Below are positions 12,833-52,975 of a stretch of DNA of 64,000 nucleotides, in pieces. The translations under genes were made by a program, and so were the position numbers. How positions within the stretch are numbered: the stretch's first letter is position 1; each line of letters starts with the position of its first letter. The DNA is from Actinomycetota bacterium (lineage in GTDB: Bacteria > Actinomycetota > Geothermincolia > Fen-727 > Anoxymicrobiaceae): NCBI GenBank assembly GCA_018831265.1, contig JAHJCO010000052.1:22597-86596 (forward strand), given 5' to 3'. The notes under the pieces were generated by a model that saw nothing but the letters and a program-made list of their open reading frames with translations, did no database searches and was not told the DNA's origin.

Positions 12833-13102
12833 TCGAGCGGCCACGATGTGACTAACCAGGGGGTCAGGCACAATTCAAGTCACACAGGCCAGGTCGTACT
12901 GACGTTCATCTCGGGCCGCACCCCGCTGCCCTGCTCTTGCTCGACCTACATACAGGGTCACGATGTGACTGGTTGAGTAGCCTGAAATTGAATGCTTTTC
13001 TCGAGCAACCACCAAGTGACTAGGCTTGGGGTCAGGCACAATTCAAGTCACACCATACAGGTTGTCCAGCATTGAAGCTGACATTGAATTGAGCCTGACC
13101 CC
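12833..13102. mobile_element. MITE-like non-coding element, copy A (about 270 bp). Imperfect terminal inverted repeats GGGGTCAGGCACAATTCAAGT / ATTGAATTGAGCCTGACCCC, with internal repeats of GGGGTCAGGCACAATTCAAGTCACAC and GTGACT-containing units
   Basis: About 90% identical, in inverted orientation, to 44091-44356. The 3' half is repeated at 50997-51100. Fragments occur at 18351-18397. Confidence 0.65.
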
Positions 13103-13212
13103 ACTTTATTCACATACCCTCTTCACACTTTAGACATATCTCAATGCTAGACTGTGCTCCATGAAATACTATTAATCCAATAGACTTTGTAGTCTGAGGA
13201 GCCTGGAGGGGC

Positions 13213-13614
13213 GTGATGAAGAAGACAGTCGTAGTGTTGATAGCGCTGGCGTTGCTGGGTGGCGCGGTAGCCGTCGTCGCGGGCTGCGGGGGTTCCGGGC
13301 TCAGGGCCGGCGCGGAGATCCCCGCGGACACGGCTGTGGTCGGTATCGCTGAGATCAACGAGAAGCCCACCGCCTACGCGGGCAAGTCGGTCGTGACCTC
13401 CGGTTATTACGGGATCGGGCTCTGCTCCGATTGCTTTCTCATCAAGGACGGCGTCGCGACCCTCAGGGTGGAAGGCTCGCAGACGGTGCCGGTGCCGTCG
13501 AAGTCGTACCTGAACAAGCCCCTCAGGGTGTACGGCACGGTCGATGTTACCGAGGGGGCCGGGGGGACCGAGCAGGCTATCACGCTGAAGGCCGAAGGCC
13601 TCGAGTTCCAGTAG
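13213..13614 (+). CDS. small lipoprotein (signal peptide with lipobox VAGC) preceding a MacB-type ABC transporter
   Basis: MMKKTVVVLIALALLGGAVAVVAGCGG...; 133 aa. ATG at 13216 or GTG at 13213. Confidence 0.6.
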   Translation: MMKKTVVVLIALALLGGAVAVVAGCGGSGLRAGAEIPADTAVVGIAEINEKPTAYAGKSVVTSGYYGIGLCSDCFLIKDGVATLRVEGSQTVPVPSKSYLNKPLRVYGTVDVTEGAGGTEQAITLKAEGLEFQ

Positions 13615-13624
13615 TGATCGTGCC

Positions 13625-14779
13625 ATGAGACTCCACACGCTCGCTCTGAAGAACCTCAGGCGGCACAGGGTGCGAAGCATCCTGACCGTCGCCGGTATCG
13701 CCATCTCGGCCATAACGCTGTTCTCCATACTCTCGTTCAACTCCGGGTACGACCGGGCGCTCAAGGAGGAGATATCGGGCTCGGGTATCCACATCTACGT
13801 CTCGCGGGAAGGCTGCCCGCTCGAGGCCGCCTCGCTCATCATCCACGGAGGCGAGATACCCGAGTACCTCGACGAGGGGCTGCTCCCCCAGGTTCAGTCC
13901 ATCAGCGGGGTCAGGGCGGCCGGCGGGATGCTGATAGCCACCGCGATAACCGGCGGGATGGCCGACCTCTTCTACGGCATCACCCCCGAGGTGCGCTCGC
14001 TCAAGCCGAACTGGCGCCTGAAGGGTCAGTGGTTCCAGGACGGAGGCTCGGCGGTCCTCGGGGCCAAGGTCGCCGCCAAGATGAAGAAAGGGGTCGGCGA
14101 CACCGTCGAGGTCCCAAGCGTGGGCAGGAGCTTCAAGGTGACCGGCGTGCTGGAGCCAACCAACGGAGAGGACGACGGCTTCTACTACCTGCCGCTCGCC
14201 ACGGCCCAGGAGCTCTTCGGGAAGCCCGCCAAGCTCACCGCGGTGGGAATCCAGCTCGACGACGTGACCACCCTCGCGCAGGTGAGGCGTGACATCGAGA
14301 AGCTGCCCGGGGCGTACGTGGTCCCGGCCGAGGATATGAGCAACCGGGTGCTGGAGATAGTGGGCGGGACCAAGTCCATCATGTTCGCGATCATGGTCAT
14401 CGTACTGGTGGTGGCCGGCCTGGGCGTGTTCAACATCGTTCTCATGGCGACGTTCGAGCGCAGGGAGGAGTTCGGCTACCTTCGCTGCGTGGGAGCCGGC
14501 AGGGGTTCCATATTCAGGATGATAGTCATAGAGACCCTGGCCCTGAGCCTGCTCGGGTTCGCCGCGGGCCTGGGGGTTGGCTGGGCGGCTTCCTCCGGCA
14601 TCGACCGCTGGATAAGGCACTTCGTGGCCTACGTCCCCTCCGGCCGCCTGATACGGCCCGACCTGTGGTCGGTTCTCATAACCGCGGGGGTCGTCCTGGC
14701 GCTGGGACTGCTGGCGGGGCTCTACCCCGGCTACCGCGCATCGAGCGTACCTCCGATGGAGGCGATACGAAGTGAGTGA
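13625..14779 (+). CDS. ABC transporter permease, FtsX/MacB family
   Basis: N-terminal TM (LKNLRRHRVRSILTVAGIAI), a periplasmic domain and a C-terminal FtsX 3-TM bundle. Confidence 0.8.
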   Translation: MRLHTLALKNLRRHRVRSILTVAGIAISAITLFSILSFNSGYDRALKEEISGSGIHIYVSREGCPLEAASLIIHGGEIPEYLDEGLLPQVQSISGVRAAGGMLIATAITGGMADLFYGITPEVRSLKPNWRLKGQWFQDGGSAVLGAKVAAKMKKGVGDTVEVPSVGRSFKVTGVLEPTNGEDDGFYYLPLATAQELFGKPAKLTAVGIQLDDVTTLAQVRRDIEKLPGAYVVPAEDMSNRVLEIVGGTKSIMFAIMVIVLVVAGLGVFNIVLMATFERREEFGYLRCVGAGRGSIFRMIVIETLALSLLGFAAGLGVGWAASSGIDRWIRHFVAYVPSGRLIRPDLWSVLITAGVVLALGLLAGLYPGYRASSVPPMEAIRSE

Positions 14780-15443: not shown

Positions 15444-15517
15444 AAGAAAACCTCAGACCAAAACTTTCAACGAAGGCTTGTTCGAGGCTGCTGATGAAAG
15501 AAATGGTCTGAGGTTTT
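15436..15517. terminator. inverted repeat GAAAGAAAACCTCAGACC ... GGTCTGAGGTTTTCTTGC (45-nt spacer) between convergent genes. The element begins at the TGA stop of the ABC ATPase gene
   Basis: Seen directly. The same 18-mer arm recurs at 22937 and 22968. Confidence 0.5.
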
Positions 15518-15524
15518 CTTGCAC

Positions 15525-18094: not shown

Positions 18095-18350
18095 CGCACC
18101 CGGCTCTCGCTGTCCGGGTAGCTCCGCTTCCCGGTCCATCGACGCTGCCTTTCACCTGGTCCCAGAAGGCTTCCCGTATGAATAACGCGATTTTAACCCG
18201 CGGCTAACGGCCGTTTCACCCGCGTGCCCGATTATCCTCCCAGGGACCGGGTAGATGGAACCGGTCTGGAATCGGGCCGGGTGGCGCGGCTTCATACTCC
18301 CCCACTCACTCCCCGCGCCGCCCGGCTTCCCCTCCACTTTGAGTACCCAT

Positions 18351-18424
18351 GAGGTGACTGGGCTGGGGGTCAGGCACGATTCAAGTCACACCATACAAGA
18401 ATAGAATGGTGCCTGGCACCATTC
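18351..18424. repeat. MITE fragment (GTGACTGGGCTGGGGGTCAGGCACGATTCAAGTCACACCATACA) plus palindrome GAATGGTGCC-T-GGCACCATTC
   Basis: Matches the 5' end of the copy at 44091-44356 in reverse complement. The palindrome shares the GGTGCCnGGCACC core. Confidence 0.55.
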
Positions 18425-18427
18425 AAT

Positions 18428-19219
18428 TCACTTCTTGAGGCCGATGTAGTAGAGGCGGTTGAAGCTCACCGTCACCAGCCCGTCGCGGGCGTCCGTCTCC
18501 ATCTCCTCACGGACCGCGCGGTTGAACGCCTCTACGTAATCGTCACCGATCTCGACGTCGTAGGCGGCTCCGTCCACGAAGCCCCGCGCCGCACCCGTGA
18601 TGTAGATGCCGTAGGCCTCCTCGACGGTGTGCTCGCTCGTCTCCACCTCGATCGCCGCATGCGTGGTGGCGAAGCCGCAGCGCTCGAACAGCGTGCGGTA
18701 CTGATCCAGGCCCGGGAGCTGGAACCACGGGTTGCACCAGTGGGCCCAGGTTGGTGCCAGGTCGGCTCGCTCCCCCGCGCGCGCCACCATGGTGTTGAAC
18801 CAGGGGGCGAAGTCGGGTGTCGCGGGACAGCACACGCCCAACCGCCCGGGTCTGGCAAGGGCCTGGTACATCGCGGAGATAGCCCCCACCGCGTTGCCGA
18901 ACCACTGCAGCGTGGAGTTGCAGAAGACGACGTCGAACTCCTCCTCGTAGTCCAGGTCCTCGGCCGCCACGCACCTGAATTCCATACCCGGGTGACTGGA
19001 GCGGGCCTTCTCGATCATGCCCTCCGAGATGTCGGCACCGACCACCCGTCCGCCGGTCCTGCGCGCGAGCTCCGCGGTGATATGTCCCGGGCCGCAGCCC
19101 ACGTCCAGCACCGACTTCCCCGGCTTGAGGTCCAGCAGGTCCATGAGCCGGTCGGCCGCTTTCCGCTGCACCACGGACTTCGCGCGATAGTCGCCGGACA
19201 CCGGATCGAACACTCCCAT
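18428..19219 (-). CDS. class I SAM-dependent methyltransferase (Tam/UbiE-like)
   Basis: Internal start MGVFDPVSGDYRAK.... Motif I VLDVGCGPG; motif post-I VVGADISEGM. Confidence 0.7.
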   Translation of the reverse strand: MGVFDPVSGDYRAKSVVQRKAADRLMDLLDLKPGKSVLDVGCGPGHITAELARRTGGRVVGADISEGMIEKARSSHPGMEFRCVAAEDLDYEEEFDVVFCNSTLQWFGNAVGAISAMYQALARPGRLGVCCPATPDFAPWFNTMVARAGERADLAPTWAHWCNPWFQLPGLDQYRTLFERCGFATTHAAIEVETSEHTVEEAYGIYITGAARGFVDGAAYDVEIGDDYVEAFNRAVREEMETDARDGLVTVSFNRLYYIGLKK

Positions 19220-19317
19220 CGGAAACCTCCCTTCAAGGAGATGATATACGACCGGCGCGGTCGTGCGCCTGTCGCGGCTCAATGTCACCCGGAGGGCATT
19301 CCGTGTATCATGTCGCC

Positions 19318-20235
19318 ATGAAGTCTACTCGTGGACCCCTCGGGCCAAGCCGCGGGAAGGCCCTGCTCTCGGTCACAATGGCCGTGCTGCTGCTGTCTCT
19401 GGTCGTAGCCCTGTCACCCGGGTGCGGCTCGAAGAACGCCTCCGTGCCGACCCTGGACCCCTTCAAGGGGCTCGACTCAGGCCTTGCCTCGGCCTCGGGG
19501 CTGTCGTCGGGCGGGTTCGTGGTGGACGGGTGCCTGTTCACCACGAGGCAGGGCGACGAGCTCGAGGGCGTGCTTCCCCCCGTCAAGCCCCAGGTCCTGA
19601 GCAAGGGCAATACCAACGTGAAGAAGGTCGCCCTGACCATCGACGACGGCTGGAACGCCGACATGCGCATCCTACAGCTCCTCAAGGACAGCAAGGTCAA
19701 GTTCACGGCCTTCCTCATCGGGGGGCGAAACATGGTGGAGAGCAATCCCGATTTCGTGCGGCAGATACAGGAGGCCGGGGGCGAGGTCTGCTCTCACACC
19801 TGGGACCACTACGTGATGCGGGGCAAGGACGAGGCGACCGTCATGATGGAGATCTGGAAGTCGCAGGGAATTATCACCGACATCACCCACCGGGTCCTGC
19901 CGTACATCCGGTTCAGCGGGGGGGCGTACGACCAGCCGGCGCTCGACTGGACCGCGCGCGAGGGCTACTGGGTCGTCAACTGGAGCGCCTCCGACAACGA
20001 CACCGCCAGCGGGGTGACCGTGGACTCGCAGGTGGCGGCGCTGCTCTCCGGGTGCTCGAACGGCGCCATACTGCTGTGCCACTGGGGCGGGCACAACACC
20101 TATGAGGTCCTGGCGCGCGCCATCCCGGAGATACAGAAGCGCGGCTTCGAGGTGACCTCGCTATCCGAGGTCATGGAGGGCACCCCGTACGTGCTCACCG
20201 AGAAGGCCTACCGGGAGCACAACAAGAAGAAGTAG
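19318..20235 (+). CDS. polysaccharide deacetylase (NodB-homology) lipoprotein
   Basis: Signal plus lipobox ...VALSPGCGS. NodB motifs TIDDGW, GGRNMVE, HTWDH, LLCHW. Confidence 0.75.
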   Translation: MKSTRGPLGPSRGKALLSVTMAVLLLSLVVALSPGCGSKNASVPTLDPFKGLDSGLASASGLSSGGFVVDGCLFTTRQGDELEGVLPPVKPQVLSKGNTNVKKVALTIDDGWNADMRILQLLKDSKVKFTAFLIGGRNMVESNPDFVRQIQEAGGEVCSHTWDHYVMRGKDEATVMMEIWKSQGIITDITHRVLPYIRFSGGAYDQPALDWTAREGYWVVNWSASDNDTASGVTVDSQVAALLSGCSNGAILLCHWGGHNTYEVLARAIPEIQKRGFEVTSLSEVMEGTPYVLTEKAYREHNKKK

Positions 20236-20258
20236 TGTGCAAAAGTGCCAGGCACTTT
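20228..20258. terminator. palindrome TGCAAAAGTGCC-A-GGCACTTTTGCA overlapping the deacetylase stop
   Basis: 12-bp perfect arms. Same family as TGCAAAAGGGTCAGGCCCTTTTGCA at 33443. Confidence 0.45.
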
Positions 20259-20350
20259 TGCACCATCTGCCGGGGAAACCGCCTTCCTTATAGAATTAAG
20301 CCTCGAGGGCCGGACGGCCCGCGGTCCTTCAAACGGGGTGGGAGAAGCGG

Positions 20351-22934: not shown

Positions 22935-23090
22935 AAGAAAACCTCAGACCATTTCTTTCAATTGAAAGAAGACCTCAGACCATTTCTTTCATCAGCGGCT
23001 CTTTACCACCTGGGTGAAAGTTTTGGTCTGAGGTATTCTTTCATGGGTGAAAGTTTTGGTCTGAGGTATTCTTTCATTAGAATTGTCGTA
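22934..23090. repeat. array of four small hairpin units. Two direct copies of GAAAGA(A/G)AACCTCAGACCATTTCTTTCA are followed by two direct copies of their reverse-complement relative GGGTGAAAGTTTTGGTCTGAGGTATTCTTTCAT
   Basis: The array starts at the TGA stop of the upstream gene. The whole region can form a long cruciform. Not CRISPR: only two copies, units are self-complementary, and there are no spacers. Confidence 0.55.
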
Positions 23091-23100
23091 GGAGCGGCTG

Positions 23101-25689: not shown

Positions 25690-25745
25690 AATTAGTATAT
25701 ACGATTCTTTGAATTATATATACGCGATTCAAGAGGTGTCGGAGC
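25690..25745 (-). promoter_or_regulatory. candidate vapBC promoter/operator: AT-rich with direct repeats TATATACGATTC / TATATACGCGATTC
   Basis: Immediately upstream of vapB. AbrB-type antitoxins autoregulate through repeated operator half-sites. Confidence 0.35.
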
Positions 25746-25909
25746 TTTGCGTAACATCAACAACAGCAGTTGAACAACGAATCAGCAGCCACAGAAATCG
25801 CCCCGGCGTAGGCCGTGGGACCACCCGGCCTGTTATTCAAGTTACTCCACTTGAATAGTGATAAAACAGTTGTTTATCGTGATTCAATTCTCCGACACCG
25901 CGGCCGCCC

Positions 25910-28306
25910 TCAGTCGTCGAAGCCGCCGATCGTGTCCGTGCCCGCGCCCCGGGAGTTCCAGTACATGGCACGCTCGCACATGATGCGCCCTCCCGCAGTC
26001 AGCGACTCCACCATCACCGCCGCCCGACCTCCTGGCAGGTGGTCGGCCATGTTGAAGGTGACACGCGAGTTCGCGGGGACCTCGGAGTCGAACTGCGGGC
26101 TGCCCAGCCCGTCCGGCGTCATGTAGGTCACCCTCACCGTGACAGGCACGTCGTTGGGATTCTGCACGAGCGTCCAGGTCTCGTGGCCGTTGGCCGTCTC
26201 GCCGTCGGGCAGGAAGAACTTCATGTGACGGTTTGCCATGCCGATCGAGTCGTGGCAGGCCTCCCCCGCCCCGGCGTCCCAGTACATGGCTCTCTCGGTG
26301 ATGATGCTCTGCGAGCCGTGGGCGTGGGTGGAGAAGTCGGGAACGTTCATGCTCGGTGACTCCTGGTTGACGTTGACGGTCCGCCTGGAGTTGGGGGGCA
26401 TCTGGAACGAGGTCTGAGTACTGTCCTGGGGCGTCATGAACGTCAGGGTGACGTCCGTGACCGTGTCGTGCGGGTTCTGCACCAGCACGTAGGTGGTGAA
26501 CCCCCAGCCGACCGAGCCCTCCGCGAGGTAGCAGTCGACCGCCGGGGTCGTGGTCCCGGTGGAGTCGTGACCCTCCCTCCTGCCGTTGCGGTACATCGCC
26601 CGCTCGGGGATGACCGGCACGCTGGAGGTGACCATGATGGACGCGTCGGCGCTCCCGATGTCATCGACCATGCCGAAGCTGCTCCGCGAGTTCGCCGGCA
26701 CCACGTGGTTCACCGGAACCGGCTCGCCGCCCTCGACCATGTAGGTCACCGTGCAGTATGCGTCCTGGGTGTTGGGGTTCTGGATGAGCAGCCAGGTCTC
26801 GAAACCCCACTTCGAGCTTCCCTCGGGCATGTACCAGGTCCGGGCCGGAGCCGTGACCCCCACCGAGCAGTGCCCCTCCGGCGAGAGCGCTCCCTGGCCG
26901 GTCCACATCATGCGGCGGTCCACCGCGATGGTCCGTCCCTCCTTACAGACGACCCTGGTGGAGAAGTCGGCCGTGCCGATGTCGTTCCTGGGGTTGATCA
27001 CGGTCTGGCTGTTCGCGGGGAGCCAGACGTCGGGCCTCTGGGTGGGCCCGGACGGCGTCATGTAGGTCACGGCGGCCGTGGACGCCTGGGCGCTCGGGTT
27101 CTGTATGGTCACGTAGGTCTCGAACCCCCAGTCGCTGGACCCCTCGGCCAGGTACCATGTCGAGAAGTACGCCTTGGTGACGGTCAGGGCTCCCACCCCG
27201 GTCGCGGACTCCCCGTCCGGGTTGCGCACGGTCACGTCCCAGGTCCCGAGCGCCGCCCCGGTCAGGTCCACGTAGCACACAAGCCCCTGCGTATAAGCGA
27301 CCGCCTCGCCGGTCGCCTCGATATCGCCCTGCCCGCTCCTCTCCAGGACCACCTGCGCGCCCTCGTCGAACCCCTGGCCGGCGATGTTCATGGACACCGA
27401 GCCGTTGTTCGGCGCGGTCGACGGCTGCACGTTGCTGACCGACATCTCCGGCTCGGGCTCGGGCTCGGGTTCCGGCTCCTCCTCGATGAACGCCGCGTAG
27501 GCGTCGTTCAGCAGGGGCACGAACTCGGCTGTCGCCTTGAGGTTGCCGGCCTGCGAGGGGTGGTCGTCACCGGTGGGGTAGGCCAGCGTGTTCCCACCGC
27601 CGTCGGTCTTGTGCTGCACCGCGCCGTTCCACCAGCGGTGGTGGTTACCGTTCGCGCTCCCCAGGTCGTTGGTGTCCGGGTCCCCGCCGTTGCTGGTCAG
27701 CACGTTGTAGAAGTCGAATACGAGCACGTTGCCCGTTTCGTAGGAGTCCAGCCAGTCGTTCACCAGCCACTGGTTGAAGGCGCGCGCGTTCGCCGCCCAG
27801 GTCGAATCGCTCAAGGGTGGGGCGGCGATGACCACGAACAGCCTGTCCGATTGCGTGGCGAAGTAATCCAGCAGGGCGATGTAGATACCCTTGGCGTTGG
27901 CCACCGTGTGATACTGAGACCCGCAGGCCTGGCTTCTCAGGGGATTCGAACCGATGGGTGGGACCGGGTCGGAGGGGTTTCCCCTAAGGCCTGAGTTCGG
28001 GAAGCACGACTTGAAGACGACCACCTCGTTCTCGCCGGTGGGATCCGGGTTGGAGGCCATCCGCGAGTAGGAGCAGTTCTGGCCGGACTGGTCGTAGAGC
28101 GCCGCGGTGTAGGTGTCCCGCGAGGGCCCCAGGAACCAGTCGTACCAGTGGCCGATGTCCGTGCGGTCCCCGATGGCATCCGGCCCCCACCCGTAGTTGG
28201 TATCGCTCACGTAGTAGTTGCCGTCCCGCAGGGCCAGCCCGAGGCCGCCGTTGCCATCGGCGAGCCAGTTCTGGCCGGTGGAGTGGTGGACGAAGACGAG
28301 CCTCAC
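25910..28306 (-). CDS. secreted modular protein: N-terminal about 300-aa putative hydrolase-like head, EPEPEPEPEPE linker, IPT/TIG-like Ig domain, and a 4-module WYLAEG...AERAMYW block ending GTDTIGGFDD
   Basis: Modules: STWYLAEGSSDWGFETYVTIQNP, RTWYMPEGSSKWGFETWLLIQNPN, VDCYLAEGSVGWGFTTYVLVQNPH, MKFFLPDGETANGHETWTLVQNPN. The true N-terminus probably extends to about 28411: the in-frame upstream peptide IRRAIAIAVAAGLLCLASPFVPAALAADP is a signal peptide with GGAGAAGGAGG 5 nt before an ATC codon and no canonical start. Confidence 0.75.
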   Translation of the reverse strand: MRLVFVHHSTGQNWLADGNGGLGLALRDGNYYVSDTNYGWGPDAIGDRTDIGHWYDWFLGPSRDTYTAALYDQSGQNCSYSRMASNPDPTGENEVVVFKSCFPNSGLRGNPSDPVPPIGSNPLRSQACGSQYHTVANAKGIYIALLDYFATQSDRLFVVIAAPPLSDSTWAANARAFNQWLVNDWLDSYETGNVLVFDFYNVLTSNGGDPDTNDLGSANGNHHRWWNGAVQHKTDGGGNTLAYPTGDDHPSQAGNLKATAEFVPLLNDAYAAFIEEEPEPEPEPEPEMSVSNVQPSTAPNNGSVSMNIAGQGFDEGAQVVLERSGQGDIEATGEAVAYTQGLVCYVDLTGAALGTWDVTVRNPDGESATGVGALTVTKAYFSTWYLAEGSSDWGFETYVTIQNPSAQASTAAVTYMTPSGPTQRPDVWLPANSQTVINPRNDIGTADFSTRVVCKEGRTIAVDRRMMWTGQGALSPEGHCSVGVTAPARTWYMPEGSSKWGFETWLLIQNPNTQDAYCTVTYMVEGGEPVPVNHVVPANSRSSFGMVDDIGSADASIMVTSSVPVIPERAMYRNGRREGHDSTGTTTPAVDCYLAEGSVGWGFTTYVLVQNPHDTVTDVTLTFMTPQDSTQTSFQMPPNSRRTVNVNQESPSMNVPDFSTHAHGSQSIITERAMYWDAGAGEACHDSIGMANRHMKFFLPDGETANGHETWTLVQNPNDVPVTVRVTYMTPDGLGSPQFDSEVPANSRVTFNMADHLPGGRAAVMVESLTAGGRIMCERAMYWNSRGAGTDTIGGFDD

Positions 28307-36439: not shown

Positions 36440-36514
36440 CACTCCCATCCTGTACGGTCTTTCGCGTCGGATTCGCATCGGGGTCTCAACGCCGATGCGA
36501 AAACCCGGGCGGCT

Positions 36515-40605: not shown

Positions 40606-40778
40606 GATGAGGGACCTTCCTTTCCTTCCGGTGTTTCACAGTATCCTAGTGCCCCACCGCGCGGGCGGTCAAACAGGGTTCGTGGCCTTCATCGTCAACC
40701 CGAGCACAGGATGGCACTCGCTTCAAACTGATATAATCAAACAGGCGTATGCAACTACTTGGAAGGCGGTGTTACGCT

Positions 40779-43700
40779 ATGCGTACTCACCTGAGGGCTC
40801 ACCATGCTACGTTTGCCGTGCTGGTTCTCTCAGCGCTTGTGCTCTGCTCGGCGATCGCCTTCGCGGGGACGCGCTGGGCCTCAAACGGGGTCGTGGTTTG
40901 CAACGTGGACAATCACCAGAACCTGCCGGAGGCGGTCTCGGACGGGACCGGCGGTGTTATCGTGGTATGGCAGGACACGCGCACGGCCGGTACCGACTAC
41001 AGCGTCTATGCGCAGCGGCTCAACTCGGCGGGGCAGCCCCAGTGGACCGCGGGCGGTCTACAGATCGCGGCGGCACAGGGGCAGGTTACCTTCGCGCAGT
41101 ATCCCTACCCAAAGATCGCGACCGACGACGCGGCCGGAGCTTACATAGTCTGGACAAACAAGTCGGGTGCCAACTGGGATATCTGCGCCAGGAGGGTCCT
41201 CGCCGACGGCTCGCTGCCATGGGCGACTGTCAACGTCTGTGGAGCCGCCGGCAACCAGAGGAACCCGGTGGTCTGCGCGGACGGCTCCGGCGGAGTCCTT
41301 GTCTCCTGGGAAGACCAGCGGGCCGGCGGGCCGTGGCGGGTCTATGCCCAGAGGTTGAACTCCAGCGGAGTAGCCCAGTGGACCGGCGATGGGGTGGCGC
41401 TGAGCGCGCTGGCCAGCGACCAGCAGGCGCCCTGCATCGCCGCCGACGGTGCGGGAGGGGCGGTGGTCGCCTGGCAGGACGACCAGGCGCCGCTGGTGCT
41501 GTTCAACATCTACGCGATGCACGTCGACCAGCTCGGCGCCAAAGACCCGTTGTTCGGGCCCAATGGCCTGCCCGTGGCCGCGTCGGCCCAACCGCAGGGA
41601 ACCCCCGTACTGGTCGACTCCGGCTCGCAGAGCTTCGTCACCGCCTTCACCCAGGACCCGGGCGGAGGAGTGACAGACATATACGCGCAGAAGTTCGACC
41701 TGACCGGCGCCTTCCCGTGGGGACTCTCCGGCGCTACGGTGTGCACCGCAGCGGGTATGCAATACGAGCAGCAGATAATCGGTGACGGCGCGGGCGGAAC
41801 CTACGTGGCCTGGCGCGACCAGCGTGGCGCGCCCGACTACATCTACGCTCAGCACCTGCAGTCCGGTGGAACTCCGTACTCGGGCTGGGATCCAGACGGC
41901 CTGCACATGGCAGGCATGGGCCTCGGCAACCAGCAATCCCCCAGGCTCACTTCCGACTCCCTGACCGGCGCCTACGTGACCTGGCACGACTACCGCGACG
42001 ACCCCGCCAACCCCGACATCTACGCACAGCGGGCCACTTCGGGTGGCACGCGCGTCTGGGGCACCACCGGCCTGGCCATATGTACCGCGACGGGTTGGCA
42101 GGGATTCCCGGTGATCGCGGGCGACGGCTCATACGGAGCGATGATCGCCTGGGAAGATGGGCGGAACGACACCCCCTCCGGGACGGGCTACGATATCTAC
42201 GCGCAGCGCACGAGCAACGATGCGCCGACAGTTACCGGGATAACCCCTGCCAAGGGACTCAACAACAGCAGTATTGACTGTACGGTGACCGGCACCAACT
42301 ACTACACACCCGGAACGCTCGCCAAGCTCAAGAGAGGCAATACCTATATCACCGGCACCAACAATACGGTTGTGAACAGCACGACTCTGACCAGCAGGTT
42401 CGACCTGGCCGGGAAAGCCTATGGAACGTACGACGTGCTCGTCTACAGCGGCGACGGGCAATCAGGCTCGAAGGCAGGATCGTTCACCGTCAAGTCCTCC
42501 GTACCCGTGATGGAGACGCTGCTTCCCCTGAACGCCACCCCGGGAGACACGGTGACGATTACCGGAGGCGGCTTCGGCGACAACCAGGGGGCCGGCAGCG
42601 CAGGTGGAGCCGCATCGTTCGTCTCATTCTCGGGTGTCAGTGCAACCGTGTACAGCGAATGGACGGATACCAGGATCAAGTGCGAGGTCCCGGTCGGGGC
42701 CGGCAGCGGGGACGTTTCCGTAACCACCTCGACTGGTACCTCCAACACCAGGACCATCACCGTGGTCTACCCCACCTGGTTCCTGGCCGAGGGCAGCACC
42801 TCGTGGGGATTCGATACATACATAGCCATCGAGAATCCAAATACCGTCGGGGTGGATGCGCAGGTGACGTACATGACCACCGGCGGCGAGGTCGACGGGG
42901 GCACCATCAACCTGCCCGCCGGCTCGCAGACCACGATCCATCCCAAGGACCTGTTGGGAGAGCAGGACTTCTCGACCAGGGTGGCCTCCCTGGACACCTC
43001 CAGGGATATCTGCGTCGACAGGACCATGACCTGGTACTCGGGGTACGGGAACGGCAACGCCTGGCACGGCTCGGTCGGGGTGACCGGTTCGGCTGCTACC
43101 TGGTACCTGCCCGAGGGCTCCTCCAACTGGGGATTCGAGACCTGGCTCCTGATCCAGAACCCCAACACCGTGGAGGCGAACTGCCAGGTGACCTACATGA
43201 TCGAGAACGATGTGCCGCAGACGGTCACCCACGTCGTCCCCGCGAACTCGCGCCGGACCTATAACATGGCCGACGACATAGGCTCGAAGGACGCCTCGAT
43301 AATGGTCCAGGCCGACGTGGGCGTCATACCCGAGCGGGCGATGTACCAGATGAGCACCGGGCAGTACGCCGTGCCGGACTCTCGCCGGGAGGGCCACGAC
43401 TCCATCGGGACCACGCTGCCCGACACCGACTACTACCTGGCCGAGGGGACGAGCGCCTGGGGCTTCACCACCTACGTACTCATACAGAACCCGAACGCGG
43501 TCGCGGCGAACGTTGACGTCACTTACATGACCGGCGCAGGCCCACAGCCTCAGGCGCAGTTCGAGATGCCGGCCAACTCGCGCAAGACCATCCGGGTGAA
43601 CGACGTCCCCGGGATGGGAAGCGTCGACTTCTCGACGCAGGTGCACGCCGACGCGCCGATCATCGCGGAGCGGGCGATGTACTGGCAGCCTGGAAGCGCC

Positions 43701-44084
43701 GACTCGAACCAGGCCATGCACGACTCCATCGGGATGAGCGCTCCGCACAAGGTCTTCTACCTGCCGGACGGTGAGACGTTCCTCACCGACGAGGGACCTT
43801 ACGACATCGAGACGTTCACGCTGGTACAGAATCCCAACGGCGTGGCCGTCGAGATCGAGATCAGCTACTTCCCCGAGGGAGGCGGGACCCCTGTCACCTG
43901 GAAAGACACCGTGCCCGCCAACTCCCGGATGACCTTCAACATGAGGGACCGGTTCCAGGCCAATGCCAGGGCGGCGATCAAGGTGGAGTGCCTTACAGCC
44001 GGCCGGAAGATAATGGTCGAGCGCTCGATGTACATGCAGGACAGATGGGGTGGTACCGACACGATCGGTGGATACAGCGACTAG
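40779..44084 (+). CDS. secreted modular protein: signal peptide + about ten 47-aa repeats (DIYAQR..G...W...G......Q..P.I..DG.GGA.V.W.D.R) + two IPT/TIG-like domains + 4-module WYLAEG...AERAMYW block ending GTDTIGGYSD
   Basis: Start MRTHLRAHHATFAVLVLSALVLCSAIAFAG. Modules: PTWFLAEGSTSWGFDTYIAIENPN, ATWYLPEGSSNWGFETWLLIQNPN, TDYYLAEGTSAWGFTTYVLIQNPN, KVFYLPDGETF...ETFTLVQNPN. Confidence 0.8.
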   Translation: MRTHLRAHHATFAVLVLSALVLCSAIAFAGTRWASNGVVVCNVDNHQNLPEAVSDGTGGVIVVWQDTRTAGTDYSVYAQRLNSAGQPQWTAGGLQIAAAQGQVTFAQYPYPKIATDDAAGAYIVWTNKSGANWDICARRVLADGSLPWATVNVCGAAGNQRNPVVCADGSGGVLVSWEDQRAGGPWRVYAQRLNSSGVAQWTGDGVALSALASDQQAPCIAADGAGGAVVAWQDDQAPLVLFNIYAMHVDQLGAKDPLFGPNGLPVAASAQPQGTPVLVDSGSQSFVTAFTQDPGGGVTDIYAQKFDLTGAFPWGLSGATVCTAAGMQYEQQIIGDGAGGTYVAWRDQRGAPDYIYAQHLQSGGTPYSGWDPDGLHMAGMGLGNQQSPRLTSDSLTGAYVTWHDYRDDPANPDIYAQRATSGGTRVWGTTGLAICTATGWQGFPVIAGDGSYGAMIAWEDGRNDTPSGTGYDIYAQRTSNDAPTVTGITPAKGLNNSSIDCTVTGTNYYTPGTLAKLKRGNTYITGTNNTVVNSTTLTSRFDLAGKAYGTYDVLVYSGDGQSGSKAGSFTVKSSVPVMETLLPLNATPGDTVTITGGGFGDNQGAGSAGGAASFVSFSGVSATVYSEWTDTRIKCEVPVGAGSGDVSVTTSTGTSNTRTITVVYPTWFLAEGSTSWGFDTYIAIENPNTVGVDAQVTYMTTGGEVDGGTINLPAGSQTTIHPKDLLGEQDFSTRVASLDTSRDICVDRTMTWYSGYGNGNAWHGSVGVTGSAATWYLPEGSSNWGFETWLLIQNPNTVEANCQVTYMIENDVPQTVTHVVPANSRRTYNMADDIGSKDASIMVQADVGVIPERAMYQMSTGQYAVPDSRREGHDSIGTTLPDTDYYLAEGTSAWGFTTYVLIQNPNAVAANVDVTYMTGAGPQPQAQFEMPANSRKTIRVNDVPGMGSVDFSTQVHADAPIIAERAMYWQPGSADSNQAMHDSIGMSAPHKVFYLPDGETFLTDEGPYDIETFTLVQNPNGVAVEIEISYFPEGGGTPVTWKDTVPANSRMTFNMRDRFQANARAAIKVECLTAGRKIMVERSMYMQDRWGGTDTIGGYSD

Positions 44085-44090
44085 CAACTG

Positions 44091-44356
44091 GGGTCAGGCT
44101 CAATTCAATGTCAGCTTCAAGTCCACCCGACTTGGGTGGTGTGACTTGAATTGTGCCTGACCCCTGGCTTAGTCACTTGGTAGTTGCCCAAGAAAAGCAT
44201 TCAATTTCGGGCTATTCAACCAGTCACATCGTGACCCTGCATATAGGTCAAGCAAGAGCAGGGCAGCGTGGTGCGGCCCAAAATGACAGTCAATACGACC
44301 TGTATGGTGTGACTTGAATTGTGCCTGACCCCCAGCCTAGTCACATCGTGGCCGCT
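44091..44356. mobile_element. MITE-like element, copy A' (inverted orientation relative to 12833-13102, about 90% identical)
   Basis: Begins 7 nt after the stop of the 40779 gene. Its reverse complement aligns end-to-end with copy A. Confidence 0.65.
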
Positions 44357-44494
44357 CAAGTACGGAAGCCCCCGCTTTTTACCCCGTTTTTACAGGGGCG
44401 CAATCCCTTTTTCACTCAAATGCGTGTAAATATAGGCGTACACTGTCGTATAGATATGCGGCAGACGTTCGTCGGACGGCACGGGGAGGGAGCC

Positions 44495-45295: not shown

Positions 45296-45303
45296 CGAGA
45301 AAA

Positions 45304-45354
45304 GACCTCAACCATTATTTCTCACCTCTTTGGTGAGAAATAATGGTTGAGGTC
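45304..45354. terminator. bidirectional terminator-like hairpin, 23-bp perfect arms GACCTCAACCATTATTTCTCACC / GGTGAGAAATAATGGTTGAGGTC; paralog of the 9570 hairpin
   Basis: Lies between convergent genes 45044-45295 (+) and 45366-47504 (-). Confidence 0.6.
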
Positions 45355-45365
45355 AATTCCCAATC

Positions 45366-47617: not shown

Positions 47618-48721
47618 ATGCGGAGGCGGGCCGTTGACAGGCAGGGGGTCCCCGGGAATCGCGGGGGGGACGCGTTGAACGTCGGCCTGACCCCCGCGGA
47701 CGACGCCCGGCACCGCATGAGGGCTCCGCTGAGCTACGAGTGGTGGTACTTCGACGCAGCCTTCTCCGACGGGCACGGCGTGGTGGCGATAATCTGGCCC
47801 ATGAACTACTCCAAGCCGTGGCGGAGGCAGTGCACGGTGCAGCTCTCCATCTATACCCCGGAGGGCGGATGCCACAAGGACTACGCCTTCCCCGCGCGCC
47901 GGCTCTTCAGCGCCTCATACAATACGTGCGATGTCACGGTTGGCGATTCCTTCATGCGCGGCGCCTGGCCCCGCTACGAGGTGCGGGTCGCCTCCGGTGG
48001 CCTGGAGGTGGACCTCGAGTTCGAGGCTCGCACGCCCGGCTGGAAGCCCGGCACCGCCGTGAACTACCTGCCCTTCCCGTTGTTCAAGAGCATGGGCTGG
48101 CTGGTGCCCCTGCCGGTCGCGTCCGTCAGCGGGATGCTGCGCTACGGAGGCCGCGAGTTGTCCGTCGAGGGCCACGGCTACCACGACCACAACTGGGGCG
48201 AGGCGCCGATCTTTCACATGGTGGACAACTGGAACTGGGGACACCTGGTCTCCGGTGACCTGGCGGTGACATGGGCCGACATCACCATGTACCGGGGTAT
48301 TGGGTTCGAGCGGACCTACATGCTGCTGGTGAGCCATGGCGACCGTCTCGTCTACGAGTCGCCGTCCCTCCGAGTCGATTACTCCGACTGGCGGCGCGAG
48401 CCCGGGTACCTGCACCCCTACCCTGCGACCGTCTCCGTCTCGTTCGGGTCCAGGAGCGAGCCGGTGAACGGCGCACTGACCATGAGCGTGCAGCGGGTGG
48501 TGGAGACCCAGGACCTGCTCCAGATGGTCGGCATACCGGACCTGCTGGAGCGGCTGGTGCACAGGTTCATAGCGAAGCCCTACTACTTCCGCTGGGACTC
48601 ACTGGTGAAGGGCTCGGTAGAGATGGAGGGGCGGCGGTTCGACATCGACGGGCGGACCATCCACGAGCAGATGCTCTTCAGAGGCCGGATGCCGGAGCGC
48701 CTCGCCCGCGACGCACTGTAG
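47618..48721 (+). CDS. CrtC/AttH-like lipocalin-fold protein (hydroxyneurosporene synthase-like)
   Basis: AAGGAGAGTGGAGG RBS; motif PLSYEWWYFDAAFSDGHG is characteristic of the CrtC/AttH family. Confidence 0.55.
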   Translation: MRRRAVDRQGVPGNRGGDALNVGLTPADDARHRMRAPLSYEWWYFDAAFSDGHGVVAIIWPMNYSKPWRRQCTVQLSIYTPEGGCHKDYAFPARRLFSASYNTCDVTVGDSFMRGAWPRYEVRVASGGLEVDLEFEARTPGWKPGTAVNYLPFPLFKSMGWLVPLPVASVSGMLRYGGRELSVEGHGYHDHNWGEAPIFHMVDNWNWGHLVSGDLAVTWADITMYRGIGFERTYMLLVSHGDRLVYESPSLRVDYSDWRREPGYLHPYPATVSVSFGSRSEPVNGALTMSVQRVVETQDLLQMVGIPDLLERLVHRFIAKPYYFRWDSLVKGSVEMEGRRFDIDGRTIHEQMLFRGRMPERLARDAL

Positions 48722-48750
48722 CAAAAGGGTCAGACCATTTTGCTACAGTC
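48722..48750. terminator. hairpin GTAGCAAAAGGGTCAGACCATTTTGCTAC directly after the stop
   Basis: Imperfect GCAAAAGGG/CCATTTTGC arms around TCAGACC. Confidence 0.4.
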
Positions 48751-49663: not shown

Positions 49664-50932
49664 GTGGCAATGGACGACGAGAAAGCCTACGGCCTGTATC
49701 GATACCGCTGGGTGGTGCTCGGGGCGTTCATGGTGGTGGGGGCCCTCACCCAGCTGATGTGGCTCAACTACGCGGCAATAACCGTCTCCACCAACGAACT
49801 TACCGGCGTGGCTGAGATCATGGGCCGCAGCGAATCGAGCATCACGCTCCTGGCGACGATGTTCCCCCTCCTCTATATCCCCGTATCGATACCGGCCGGC
49901 ATAATCATAGACCGGAAGGGATTCCGCTTCGCGGTCCTGCTGGGCGCCGTGCTCACCGCCGGCTTCTCGTTCCTGAGGTTGTTCGCCGGCAACTACCCGC
50001 TGGTCCTGATCGGCATGATAGGCATCGCCATAGGGCAGCCTTTCGTCCTGAACAGCATCACCAAGATGGTGTCGGCCTGGTTCCCCACCGAGGAATCGGC
50101 CCTGGCAACGGGCATCGCCACACTGTCGCTGTTCCTGGGGATGATAGTAGCCCTCGCCCTCACCCCGGCTCTGCTGAAGGGGTTCGGCGACGACCTCAGC
50201 GCCGTCCGCTGGATCGTGCTGGTCTACAGTCTCGCCGCCGCAGGGGGTGCCGTACTGTTCGCCCTGCTGGCCCGCGCCAAGCCGCCGAAGCCGCCGAAGC
50301 GCACCGAGGAAGAACTGCAGGGAGAGGATGCGGCCATCAACTGGGGCAGTCTCCGCGCGATATTCGACCTCTATAACTTCCGGCTACTCTGCGCAATCAT
50401 ACTGATAGGCAACGGGGCCTTCGTGGGGATACTCCAGCTCATCGACCAGATACTCAAGCCGAAGGGCATCTCGCAGGACACCGCGGGTTTCATCGGCGCC
50501 GTGATGGTCATGGCGGGGGTCGTCGGCTGTGTGGTCATCCCCGGCCTGTCGGACAAGTACAGGCGGCGCAAGCCGTTCCTGCTGATTGCGGCGGGAGTGG
50601 CCATACCCACCCTTTTCCTGATCGCGCAGCTCCAGAGCGCCGCGCAGATATACGTCGTCGCGGCTTTCACGGGATTCTTCCTGTTCAGCGCCTTTCCGCT
50701 GGTGCTCACCTTCGCGGAGGAGACCACCGGTCACGCCCTCACCGGCACGGCGACCTCGATCCTGCTGTTGCTGGGAAACGCCGGCGGGGTCATCCTCACG
50801 CTGTTGATGATCGCGCTCAAGAACGTGACCGGCACGCCGTTCTACCTGTCGATGATAATGCTGGTCGTCCTCTTCGGCGTGGCGCTCCTCATCGCGACGT
50901 TCCTCAAGGAACCCGTGGCGAAAAAGGTCTGA
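49664..50932 (+). CDS. MFS transporter
   Basis: 12 predicted TM helices; MFS-like loop motifs. Confidence 0.75.
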   Translation: MAMDDEKAYGLYRYRWVVLGAFMVVGALTQLMWLNYAAITVSTNELTGVAEIMGRSESSITLLATMFPLLYIPVSIPAGIIIDRKGFRFAVLLGAVLTAGFSFLRLFAGNYPLVLIGMIGIAIGQPFVLNSITKMVSAWFPTEESALATGIATLSLFLGMIVALALTPALLKGFGDDLSAVRWIVLVYSLAAAGGAVLFALLARAKPPKPPKRTEEELQGEDAAINWGSLRAIFDLYNFRLLCAIILIGNGAFVGILQLIDQILKPKGISQDTAGFIGAVMVMAGVVGCVVIPGLSDKYRRRKPFLLIAAGVAIPTLFLIAQLQSAAQIYVVAAFTGFFLFSAFPLVLTFAEETTGHALTGTATSILLLLGNAGGVILTLLMIALKNVTGTPFYLSMIMLVVLFGVALLIATFLKEPVAKKV

Positions 50933-50938
50933 CTAGAT

Positions 50939-50986
50939 GGGTGCCAGGCAGGATTCAAGTCACATGACTTGAATCCTGCCTGGCAC
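50939..50986. repeat. 48-nt perfect palindrome GGTGCCAGGCAGGATTCAAGTCA-CA-TGACTTGAATCCTGCCTGGCACC
   Basis: Seen directly. It combines the GGTGCCAGGCA core with the TTCAAGTCACA motif of the MITE. Confidence 0.55.
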
Positions 50987-50996
50987 CGTTTTGTTT

Positions 50997-51100
50997 CTCG
51001 AGCAACTACCAAGTGACTAGGCTTGGGGTCAGGCACAATTCAAGTCACACCATACAGGTTGTCCAGCATTGAAGCTGACATTGAATTGAGCCTGACCCCC
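50997..51100. mobile_element. partial MITE copy (3' half; near-identical to 13000-13102)
   Basis: CTCGAGCAACTACCAAGTGACTAGGCTTGGGGTCAGGCACAATTCAAGTCACACCATACAGGTTGTCCAGCATTGAAGCTGACATTGAATTGAGCCTGACCCC. Confidence 0.65.
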
Positions 51101-51104
51101 TCGG

Positions 51105-52775
51105 TCAATCCGCAAACCCTCCGATGGTGTCCGTGCCCGATCCCCTGGAGTTGGAGTACATGGCCCTCTCGCACATTATCTTCCGACCGGCCGTCCGCGA
51201 CGTCACCATCACCGAGGCCCTGCCCACGGGCAGCTTCTCGGCCATGCTGTAGGACTTCCGGGAGTTGGGCTGCAGGGTGTCGGATAGCGTCAGGGATGCA
51301 CCCCCGTTCTCCGGCAGGTAGTACAGGTCTATGGCCACCGACACAGTGTTGGGGTTCTGGACGAGCGTCCAGGTCTCCCAGCCGTCGGAGGTCTGACCGT
51401 CCGGGAGGTAGAACGTGGTGTGGGGTGATGGCATCCCCACCGAGTCGTGGCATGCCTCGCCGGTCCCGTTGTCCCAGTACATGGCCCGCTCGGCGATTAT
51501 GGGGCGTGAGCCGTGGACCTGTGTGGACAGGTCGTGCCCGGGCAGCACGTTGTTGACGTTGATGGTCATCCTCGAGTTGGCCGGCATGGTCACAGGCGGC
51601 TGGGGCTGCGGACCGAAGTCTGCCGTCATGTAGGTCACCGTGACCTCGGCCGGCTCGCTGTCCGGGTTCTGTACCAGCACGTAGGTGGTGAACCCCCAGT
51701 CGGTGGTCCCCTCGGCCAGGTAGTAGTCGGTCGCCGGGGTGGTGGTCCCGATGGAGTCGTGGCCCTCGCGCCGGTTGTTGCGGTACATGGCCCTCTCGGG
51801 TATCACCGGCACGTCGGAGACCACCCGGATGGATGCGTCGGCCTCACCTATGTCTTGCGCCATGTTGAAGGTGGCCCGGGAGTTGGGGGGGACAACCTTG
51901 TCGAAGGTGGCCGGACCCGCTCCCTCTATCATGTAGGTGAGGGTCAGGTGGGCCTCGCTCCCGTTGGGGTTCTGCACCAGCAGCCAGCACTCGAAGCCCC
52001 AGTCGCTGGAGCCCTCGGCCAGGTACCAGGTGTCGTCCGGTGAGGTGACCCCCACCGAGGAGTGGGACTCGGGAGACGAGGCGCCCCCTCCCGTCCAGGT
52101 CATGGTGCGGTCCACGGCGATGGTCTCACCCTCCAGGCAGGTCACCCGGGTGGAGAAGTCACGCGCCCCCAGGTCGTCGGCCGGGAAGAGGGTGGTCTGG
52201 GAGAGGGGGGGCAGGGTTATGTCGGGCCTGCCCACCGGGCCGTCTCCGGTCATGTAGGTGACGCGGGCGATGACCGGCTCCTCGTTGGGGTTCTGGATGG
52301 ATATGCGGGTCTGGAACCCCCAGTCGGTGGTACCCTCGGCGAGGTACCAGGTGGGGGTAGGCTCAGAGGTAGGCTCAGGCGGCGGCTCCGGTGGCACGGT
52401 GACCGTAAAGTCGACAGCGTTGCTGTCCCCGCCTGCCGCGTGTACCAGCACCGGTCCGCTGGTCGCGCCGGACGGCACCGCGCAGATGACCTGGGTCGGG
52501 GCCCACGTGGTGTACGAGGTCGCGGCTTTCCCATTGAAGGTCACGGTGTTGGTCGCCTGGGTCTCGTTGAAGTTGGTCCCGGTCAGTGTCACAGGCGAGC
52601 CTACGGGCCCCGACGGCGGGTTGATGCCCGAGATCGCGGGGGCGGGAACGGTCGCGCTCGAGACGCTGTCCGGCCGCCTCGTGGCGTGAACCGAAAACAG
52701 GGCCAGCCCGGCTACCAGGCCGACGACCAGGACGAAGGATATCGCGTGCTTACGCCTCATTTGTGAAACCTCCAT
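51105..52775 (-). CDS. secreted modular protein: signal peptide + IPT/TIG-like domain + 4-module WYLAEG...AERAMYW block ending GTDTIGGFAD
   Basis: Modules: PTWYLAEGTTDWGFQTRISIQNPN, DTWYLAEGSSDWGFECWLLVQNPN, TDYYLAEGTTDWGFTTYVLVQNPD, TTFYLPDGQTSDGWETWTLVQNPN. Confidence 0.8.
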   Translation of the reverse strand: MEVSQMRRKHAISFVLVVGLVAGLALFSVHATRRPDSVSSATVPAPAISGINPPSGPVGSPVTLTGTNFNETQATNTVTFNGKAATSYTTWAPTQVICAVPSGATSGPVLVHAAGGDSNAVDFTVTVPPEPPPEPTSEPTPTWYLAEGTTDWGFQTRISIQNPNEEPVIARVTYMTGDGPVGRPDITLPPLSQTTLFPADDLGARDFSTRVTCLEGETIAVDRTMTWTGGGASSPESHSSVGVTSPDDTWYLAEGSSDWGFECWLLVQNPNGSEAHLTLTYMIEGAGPATFDKVVPPNSRATFNMAQDIGEADASIRVVSDVPVIPERAMYRNNRREGHDSIGTTTPATDYYLAEGTTDWGFTTYVLVQNPDSEPAEVTVTYMTADFGPQPQPPVTMPANSRMTINVNNVLPGHDLSTQVHGSRPIIAERAMYWDNGTGEACHDSVGMPSPHTTFYLPDGQTSDGWETWTLVQNPNTVSVAIDLYYLPENGGASLTLSDTLQPNSRKSYSMAEKLPVGRASVMVTSRTAGRKIMCERAMYSNSRGSGTDTIGGFAD

Positions 52776-52845
52776 AGTCCGACGCTAACCGGAAATGGTG
52801 TTTGCCACGCATTTTGTTACGGAAGTCGCAAAGGGGAGTTGCGAA

Positions 52846-52975
52846 GGGGTCAGGCACGAATGCAACAGTCGTCGCATCCTTGCTGTGAATGTAGGCTGTA
52901 CAAGACCCGCATATTGTTGTGCGGCCTGATGTAATCGCCTAATCGACCTGGCTGACTTGAATGGTGCCTGACCCC
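52846..52975. mobile_element. MITE-like element (about 130 bp) with terminal inverted repeats GGGGTCAGGCACGAATGCAA... / ...GACTTGAATGGTGCCTGACCCC
   Basis: Same terminal inverted repeat family but a different internal sequence. Confidence 0.55.

Follow-up and report, generated by a model that had tools for sequence, protein, structure and literature searches.

The closest described systems to the repeats reported here are the repetitive extragenic palindromes (REPs) and bacterial interspersed mosaic elements (BIMEs) of Escherichia coli, with the transposase TnpA-REP, and the REPINs (REP doublets forming hairpins) of Pseudomonas fluorescens (Bertels & Rainey 2011, PMC3116915, PMC3337134; Bertels et al. 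2017, PMC5581495). A REPIN consists of two inverted REPs and a spacer, a REP-associated tyrosine transposase (RAYT) is flanked by such repeats, and long palindromes arise as excision products; a single-copy, vertically inherited transposase flanked by genome-abundant repeats is the signature of these systems (PMC3337134, PMC5581495). Among the vertically inherited, long-lived mobile DNAs of bacteria, REPIN-RAYT systems are the best documented, but nearly all characterised cases come from Gammaproteobacteria. A family of short intergenic repeats was analysed in a 64,000-nucleotide stretch of DNA (the window) from an Actinomycetota bacterium (Geothermincolia, Anoxymicrobiaceae; assembly GCA_018831265.1, contig JAHJCO010000052.1, positions 22,597 to 86,596), in which a preliminary description had noted elements resembling miniature inverted-repeat transposable elements (MITEs). 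The repeats are probably a REP/REPIN-type family of extragenic palindromes mobilised in trans by a RAYT. Systems of this kind are known, and the family would add an actinobacterial member to them.

The repeats in the window have in common a 23-nt arm, GG(G/T)G(T/C)CAGGCNNNATTCAAGTCA, which is usually preceded on its 5' side by TGACT and six further nucleotides. The arm pattern GGKGYCWGGCNNNATTCWANTCA is matched 12 times in the window against 0.00 expected matches, and the 12-mer GGGGTCAGGCAS, with up to one mismatch, is found 14 times against an expectation of 1.87, a number reached by none of 100 shuffles. One match (47683-47694), which lies inside a gene and lacks the rest of the arm, was set aside as a chance occurrence. 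Every copy of the family is intergenic on a gene map built from third-position GC content (GC3), and this map agrees with the deposited gene calls, so that the strictly intergenic placement given in the preliminary description is upheld. The copies listed there are all present, with coordinates that are exact or a few bases off. The two large inverted copies, put at about 270 bp and about 90% identity, measure 275 nt each (12832-13106 and 44086-44360) and are 87% complementary; the recurring 3' half and the fragment were recovered at 50994-51099 (99% identical to 12997-13102) and 18341-18397 (86% identical to 13003-13059), respectively. The shorter elements at 33501-33581 (81 nt) and 52846-52975 (130 nt) have the same ends as the large copies, as described, and the perfect 48-nt palindrome is real, at 50940-50987. 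The list was nevertheless incomplete, as it omitted 8060-8158, 11965-12048, 18399-18430 and three small hairpins.

Among the copies read in the window and at related loci outside it (given L numbers below), the recurring unit is about 34 nt long, TGACT-VRRATN-GG(G/T)G(T/C)CAGGCA(C/G)-N-ATTCAAGTCA, and is composed of TGACT, six semi-conserved bases, a 12-nt core, one free base and ATTCAAGTCA. The core is a quasi-palindrome with the general form GG(G/T)G(T/C)C-A-GGCAC(C) and the perfect form GGTGCC-A-GGCACC, and there is partial complementarity between the unit flanks TGACTVRRAT and ATTCAAGTCA; the unit at 18399-18430 is a near-perfect palindrome over its entire length. The recurring unit does not look like a terminal repeat. 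The sequence GGGGTCAGGCAC, earlier taken as the terminus, stops short of the outer boundary on the 'head' side, where the conserved TGACT lies 6 nt farther out. Units occur singly (L001, L004, L005, L009, L013, L019 and L023), in direct tandem with a period of 35 nt (L018, L010 and L007), back to back as perfect palindromes (window 50940-50987, L003 and L024) and as inverted doublets around spacers, the latter in 75-nt, 81-nt, 99-nt, 123-130-nt and 160-nt forms. The lengths of the elements range from 48 to 275 nt, their interiors are unrelated between size classes, and one subtype carries a 30-nt leader outside the arms. The 75-nt form is asymmetric, having GGCAC at the head and GGCTC plus one extra T at the tail, and this is kept in nine copies from two genomes. 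The 270-bp 'element' of the preliminary description is real as a sequence but is not a single element, being a composite of a long doublet whose 3' arm has decayed (L015 6844-7003 has the intact form) and a 106-nt module that consists of the 30-nt leader and a 75-nt doublet.

When one genome per prokaryotic species was scanned for exact arm matches, the arms were found in one other genome only, the metagenome-assembled genome (MAG) JAZDFZ01 (Actinomycetota), where 26 loci spread over at least 20 contigs carry them. The JGI metagenome contig collection gave no matches with either the strict or the relaxed arm pattern. The elements of JAZDFZ01 are 80-96% identical to the window copies, adjoining paralogous genes being 65-72% identical, and both loop variants of the 75-nt doublet are present in both genomes; the window and the sampled loci of JAZDFZ01 have only paralogues in common. 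Identities of up to 96%, loops included, were recorded for L021 1866-2024 against window 12946-13103 and for L020 and L025 against 44090-44164 and 13028-13102, and the 87% identity of the window's own two composites falls below these best between-genome pairs. Either vertical preservation or horizontal exchange could account for the identity between the genomes.

The window also corresponds to part of contig JAHJJV010000049.1 of MAG GCA_018822775.1, the assembly treated below as the window's MAG. Among the names carried by its closest protein homologues are Candidatus Geothermincolia and Anoxymicrobiaceae. In four relatives that are syntenic with 44-53 kb of the window, no unit is present: L029 (GCA_936417815.1), in which the Band_7 protein is 85% identical, is syntenic over 22 kb without units, and its convergent spacer between the DUF5719 and MFS genes is 50 nt long versus 172 nt in the window, and the three further related loci, L030-L032, are likewise devoid of units. 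Together with L039-L041, relatives that have no RAYT at recR, these loci provide about 80 kb with no unit. From this distribution across genomes we infer that the family is mobile. The copies in the window all fall within 8-53 kb, leaving the other 19 kb without copies, and no unit was met when the contig was walked about 9 kb past each window end (17.5 kb in total; L042/L043), a restriction that would suit a local segmental duplication confined to the region. However, the flanks of the copies are unrelated, and the same arms are found on the contigs of JAZDFZ01 and on three metagenomic contigs. A local duplication is refuted for the family as a whole and is most improbable as its origin. With its arms scattered over so many contigs of JAZDFZ01, the family is dispersed and not local, and the proposal of a dispersed, non-coding, non-autonomous family, with copies elsewhere and none at the syntenic loci of relatives, stands.

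A candidate for the mobilising enzyme lies among the units of JAZDFZ01. Searches by tblastn with Y1-transposase sequences (IS200, IS608 and the E. coli RAYT) gave one match, in L007 of this MAG, between units. The gene (L007 2241-3083, minus strand) encodes a protein of 280 aa with the HUH motif HYHLLLE and the tyrosine motif ARYIVINPV. It matches Pfam Y1_Tnp with 35.5 bits (cut-off 23) and the NCBIfam equivalog 'REP-associated tyrosine transposase' with 84 bits (cut-off 80), and its sole PDB match is E. coli TnpA-REP (4ER8), in an alignment that spans both motifs. A C-terminal helix-turn-helix region, with a weak Sigma70_r4 match, distinguishes it from the RAYTs of textbook systems. A forward unit (2210-2243) lies on one side of the gene and two reverse units (3146-3224) on the other, and another unit lies at the FtsX stop codon; five units are found in 1.6 kb, versus about 30 strict-pattern matches in the whole MAG. 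Homologues on three metagenomic contigs (L035, L033 and L034; 96, 80 and 75% identity, respectively) are each flanked by inverted units, and the gene order recR-RAYT-CYTH-FtsX is common to L007, L033, L034 and L035.

The recR-RAYT adjacency is also found in another MAG (L036), where the orthologue is 47% identical and is flanked by a different inverted repeat with the same beginning, GGGGTCAGGTCTTGAAACGTGAATTA. Given these GGGGTCAGGTCTTGAAACGTGAATTA repeats on either side of the orthologue, the repeat sequence appears to change together with the RAYT lineage. The RAYT is not paired with tnpB in L007 or L033-L035, and about 190 kb of JAZDFZ01 contain one copy of it and one distant paralogue (31% identity). 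In view of the shared recR-RAYT-CYTH-FtsX order, the gene fits a single-copy, vertically inherited transposase. No units were found in the relatives that have recR and lack the RAYT (L039-L041). The family resembles the REP/REPIN-RAYT systems in its short extragenic units, in the inverted doublets with spacers that form long hairpins, in the singlets and long perfect palindromes as presumed by-products, in the lack of target-site duplication, in a single-copy HUH/Y1 transposase that lies between inverted units at a conserved chromosomal locus and in a repeat sequence that shifts along with the RAYT lineage. Unlike the textbook cases, its host is an uncultured Actinomycetota lineage.

As judged by the 16 doublets of 48-160 nt, the arms of a doublet are complementary at 15-23 of 23 nt, and the doublets fold as single-stranded DNA (ssDNA) with z-scores of -3.2 to -11.5 relative to shuffles. 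By analogy with REPINs, two inverted units with 0 to about 110 nt between them would form a long ssDNA hairpin (the 48-, 75-, 81-, 130- and 160-nt forms), and this doublet would be the form that is excised and reinserted, with no target-site duplication, by a single-copy RAYT of the HUH/Y1 type. Decay or excision would then account for solo and tandem arms alike, as well as for the perfect 48-nt palindrome and the interior that lacks arms. The ssDNA hairpin as substrate, the mobilising role of the RAYT and its presence, now or formerly, in the genome from which the window comes are predictions that follow from comparison with the described systems.

Alternatively, the copies could be classical MITEs, that is, deletion derivatives of insertion sequences with a DDE transposase, moved via terminal inverted repeats (TIRs). 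Bacterial TIR-MITEs, such as Correia/NEMIS and the Tn3-derived TIMEs (the ends of which start with GGGG), are of defined length and come with target-site duplications and DDE partners. Like these, the elements in the window are small, non-coding, multi-copy and intergenic, often near gene ends, and their inverted ends are complementary. Nevertheless, their lengths are heterogeneous, solo and direct-tandem arms occur, and the conserved TGACT lies outside the supposed terminus. Target-site duplications, which the preliminary description had suggested looking for, flank none of the 16 doublets, inspection of offsets 0-12 having revealed no direct repeat that flanks them consistently. HUH/Y1 enzymes (IS200/IS605, RAYTs) leave no target-site duplications, and the result is therefore the outcome expected of such an enzyme. 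Except for the RAYT gene, no kb-scale insert between inverted arms was found in the window, its 17.5-kb flanks or about 190 kb of JAZDFZ01. A DDE partner was not seen, and no transposase family was recorded for 11 window proteins compared with Pfam, although the open reading frames were not systematically searched for DDE transposases; the sole arm-flanked transposase is an HUH/Y1 enzyme. Hence, the MITE interpretation holds as far as dispersed non-coding repeats are concerned, but movement as classical TIR-MITEs is very unlikely.

Several observations weigh against mobilisation of a REPIN-like family by a RAYT. No RAYT was detected in the window or its 17.5-kb flanks by tblastn, either with the Y1 queries named above or subsequently with the RAYT from L007, and of the homologues listed from the protein collection at more than 47% identity none comes from the window's MAG. 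A search for the recR orthologue led to other MAGs and none of the matches to the window's MAG. The link between the window and the RAYT is thus one of repeat homology, not of co-residence. That MAG is incomplete and fragmentary; the contigs that carry the RAYT homologues are 1.1-3.3 kb long, and contigs as short as this are normally dropped in binning. In addition, L007 was itself retrieved via the arm pattern, which carries some ascertainment bias, and L033-L035, retrieved by protein similarity alone, have the same flanking. Excision or empty-site polymorphism was not seen at nucleotide resolution, L029 being too diverged to define insertion boundaries. Solo and tandem units fold no better than shuffles (z -0.7 to -1.6), and in comparison with classical REPs the single units are weak palindromes. 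Finally, the GTAG/CGTC tag of REPs is absent, and an invariant TGACT, often the stop of a gene, lies 6 nt outside the arm. Although proteobacterial REPs typically carry this tag (GTAG or CGTC) where the palindrome begins at its 5' foot, the feature is not universal.

The relation of TGACT to stop codons was assessed for 69 arms by looking for a long, high-GC3 open reading frame ending at most 20 nt upstream, and such an end is present for 27 of them. The stop codon is the TGA of TGACT (position -11) in 17 arms, the TGA of a 10-nt leader variant in two and the TAG of TGACTAG in two or three, and in the remaining five or six it lies 8-17 nt before leaderless tail arms. At least 19 genes use the TGA of the unit leader as their own stop, including three in the window, namely an MFS gene (49664-50932; TGA at 50930-50932), a methyltransferase gene (18428-19288, minus strand; TGA at 18428-18430) and an acetyltransferase gene (52984-53628, minus strand; TGA at 52984-52986). 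The C-terminus of FtsX (LRYE) is intact with the unit TGA in both L007 and L033, and a relative without the unit has TAG at the same position. Either TGACT is an insertion or cleavage motif, or the unit brings its own stop and only exact gene-end insertions survive. For IS608, the corresponding motif is TTAC.

PATEs, which are derived from IS200/IS605, have distinct left and right subterminal hairpins and a multi-copy TnpA that is usually paired with tnpB. The present family is similar to PATEs and IS608-type elements in having an HUH/Y1 enzyme, no target-site duplication and a short motif at a fixed distance from the hairpin foot, and insertion beside a particular short motif, as with IS608, would account for TGACT being shared with stop codons. 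It differs from PATEs in that its arms are inverted copies of one arm and its enzyme is single-copy, syntenic and without tnpB. It may tentatively be suggested that this is a REPIN-RAYT of uncharacterised type, from an uncultured class of Actinomycetota, in which TGACT serves as the cleavage or target motif and units thereby come to lie exactly on TGA stops, though this more specific proposal is rather doubtful. If it were true, element identities of up to 96%, compared with about 70% for the paralogues, would point to very long preservation or to horizontal exchange.

The position of the copies also bears on host-selected hairpins at gene 3' ends, acting as terminators, mRNA stabilisers or translation-coupled regulators, the likeness of which would be due to selection or gene conversion. 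Five of the seven window loci start 0-13 nt past a stop, several unrelated hairpin families fill the convergent spacers of the window, and 50940-50987 has a terminator-type T-rich tail. However, the T-tract accompanies this copy only (other copies in 43.5-53.5 kb were not flagged), the composite 12829-13102 lies between divergent gene starts, and solo arms do not fold. Conservation extends to a 23-nt sequence and is not confined to structure, the sequence being identical in two genomes the paralogous genes of which are about 70% identical, and the conserved A/T asymmetry between head and tail places a mismatch in the stem. Together with the association with a RAYT, these features make host selection an unlikely origin of the family. 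The mycobacterial TRIT motif and the inverted pairs of DNA-uptake sequences in Neisseria have been accounted for by termination or DNA uptake and are not known to be linked to a transposase; the repeats studied here are like them in being sequence-conserved hairpins directly past stops, but unlike them in having a T-tail on one copy only and in their association with a RAYT. A function at 3' ends is compatible with a REPIN-like family as a secondary, co-opted role. Given their position 0-13 nt past stop codons, the copies may well serve in addition as mRNA 3'-end hairpins.

A structured non-coding RNA family, raised as an alternative in the preliminary description, would be consistent with the strong hairpins and with paired changes in the arms, which alter in step from one subtype to another (GGGGTC/GACCCC in one and GGTGCC/GGCACC in the other, with C/G at position 12). 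Such changes are, however, expected anyway as both arms are copies of one unit. A search of the whole window against Rfam 15 with gathering scores gave no matches, the solo units fold no better than shuffles, copies are found in both orientations relative to neighbouring genes, the interiors of the size classes are unrelated, and no promoter-like sites were seen in the 10 kb scanned. An RNA family is consequently a very remote explanation for these repeats. Four other candidates were dismissed: integron attC sites, DNA-uptake sequences and a CRISPR array were dropped by inspection, there being no R'/R'' core sites in the first case, a strictly extragenic location that is unlike the second and no regular spacer array in the third, and Tn3-type ends, which also start with GGGG, on finding no 38-bp repeats and no target-site duplications.

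A clear case of a REPIN-RAYT in an uncultured actinobacterial lineage would extend the known range of these systems. With a stable recR locus, a repeat that changes with the RAYT, several doublet sizes and shared stop codons, the family would provide a natural system for studying target choice by RAYTs and host co-option of hairpins at mRNA 3' ends. On the practical side, the repeats explain assembly breaks in this lineage, in which RAYT contigs are only 1-3 kb long, and mark gene ends that annotators may mis-call. The members of the family in the window are listed in Table 1.

Table 1. Members of the repeat family in the 64-kb window, with their location relative to genes and predicted DNA folding (z-scores relative to shuffles; '.' denotes no assigned strand).
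Position (strand)	Feature	Composition	Location	Fold
8060-8158 (.)	99-nt inverted doublet, related	arms GGTGCCAGGCACATTA; share the 12-nt core, inner flanks differ	between convergent genes, 3 nt past TAG of gene 5858-8056	-29.2 kcal/mol, z -5.7
11965-12048 (.)	arm-less interior copy	79% identical to 52870-52953 (interior of 130-nt doublet)	directly past stop of PIN toxin gene 12051-12503 (-)	
12829-13102 (+)	275-nt composite	long doublet with unit at 12849-12882, interior and, around 12965-12990, degenerate 3' arm; 106-nt module with extended leader at 12997-13016, unit at 13017-13050 and 75-nt hairpin doublet at 13028-13102	between divergent gene starts	z -6.5
18355-18388 (+)	34-nt unit	TGACTgggctgGGGGTCAGGCACGATTCAAGTCA		
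18399-18430 (-)	palindromic unit, GGTGCC subtype, near-perfect	TGAATTGAAT-GGTGCCAGGCACC-ATTCTATTC		
20239-20261 (.)	small perfect palindrome with family core	GCAAAAG-TGCCAGGCA-CTTTTGC	just past stop of gene 19282-20235	
33454-33476 (.)	small hairpin, core in loop	GCAAAAGGGTCAGGCCCTTTTGC		
33490-33581 (+)	TGACT leader and 81-nt inverted doublet	arms GGGGTCAGGCAG...CTGCCTGACCCC	last base overlaps TAG stop of gene 33581-36478 (-)	z -4.6
44086-44360 (-)	second 275-nt composite	75-nt doublet 44090-44164; units 44142-44175 and 44310-44343	starts 5 nt past TAG of gene 40749-44084	
48722-48743 (.)	small imperfect hairpin, core-like centre; weak member	CAAAAGGGTCAGACCATTTTG(C)	between convergent genes	
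50930-50987 (+)	leader and perfect 48-nt palindrome	leader TGACTAGATG; two GGTGCCAGGCAGGATTCAAGTCA arms back to back	sole copy with T-rich tail after it	-28.6 kcal/mol, z -11.5
50994-51099 (+)	106-nt module	extended leader, unit 51014-51047, 75-nt doublet 51025-51099	ends 5 nt short of stop of gene 51105-52775 (-)	
52846-52986 (-)	130-nt inverted doublet and leader	doublet 52846-52975; leader TGACTCAAACC		z -3.2

The arm-less copy at 11965-12048 is missing precisely the arm segment seen at 52954-52983 in the 130-nt doublet, and the element containing that doublet is 82% identical to L011 7739-7873. The hairpin of 33454-33476 also adjoins units in L006, L008, L014, L016 and L017. A MazE/PIN toxin-antitoxin pair (12051-12793, minus strand) is flanked by two members of the family, the arm-less copy past the PIN stop and the first composite upstream of mazE. 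Repeat members also follow, unusually often, the 3' ends of genes for a paralogous family of probable surface proteins (seen in the window, L015, L021, L023 and L024). These proteins have 101-aa (303-nt) repeats, WYLAEGAT..GFETWVLVQNP, and DUF5719, TIG and BNR domains, and are encoded at 5858-8056, 25910-28306, 40749-44084, 51105-52775 and 59211-62894 of the window and at L042 1-1579 and 6454-9555.

JAZDFZ01 has a second RAYT-like gene (L011 1551-2321), which shares 31% identity with the RAYT of L007 and is not flanked by this family. In the window, a hairpin of about 160 nt at 25740-25909, GGTGTCGGAG...CTCCGACACC, is about 71% identical to L011 1386-1560, which abuts the 3' end of that gene, and the hairpin type and the gene may represent a second repeat-RAYT pair. 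Hairpins built on GGTCAAACCTGAAAT / GGGGTCAGACCTGAAACG are found at window 32126-32210, L036 3925-3955 and 4843-4870, and L040 3010-3040; they resemble the GGGGTCAGGTCTTGAAACG repeats at the RAYT of L036, though this is a short and unproven likeness (21/25 nt).

Further intergenic hairpins in the window belong to other families. A second family, CCTCAACCAT[CT]TTTTCTCA...TGAGAAAAGATGGTTGAGG, has copies at 9572-9623 and 45296-45365 that are identical at 43 of 52 nt, each filling a convergent spacer, and the copy at 45296-45365 has a T-rich tail on the minus strand. A third, AAGAAAACCTCAGACCA...TGGTCTGAGGTTTTCTT, is found at 15444-15524 and 22935-23100 (nested or tandem) and in JAZDFZ01 at L012 1706-1787. 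The fourth, GGGGTCGGACGTTT...AAACGTCCGAC, is located at 3325-3415 of the window and at L001 4907-4991, L004 2035-2117 and L005 7548-7631, with 78-85% identity between the two genomes. Lastly, a 637-nt stretch without a confident gene call contains, at 54405-54559, a GC-rich repeat of short period (GGGGCCGG-like, 12-36 nt), the minus strand of which may code for a segment rich in Pro and Ala.

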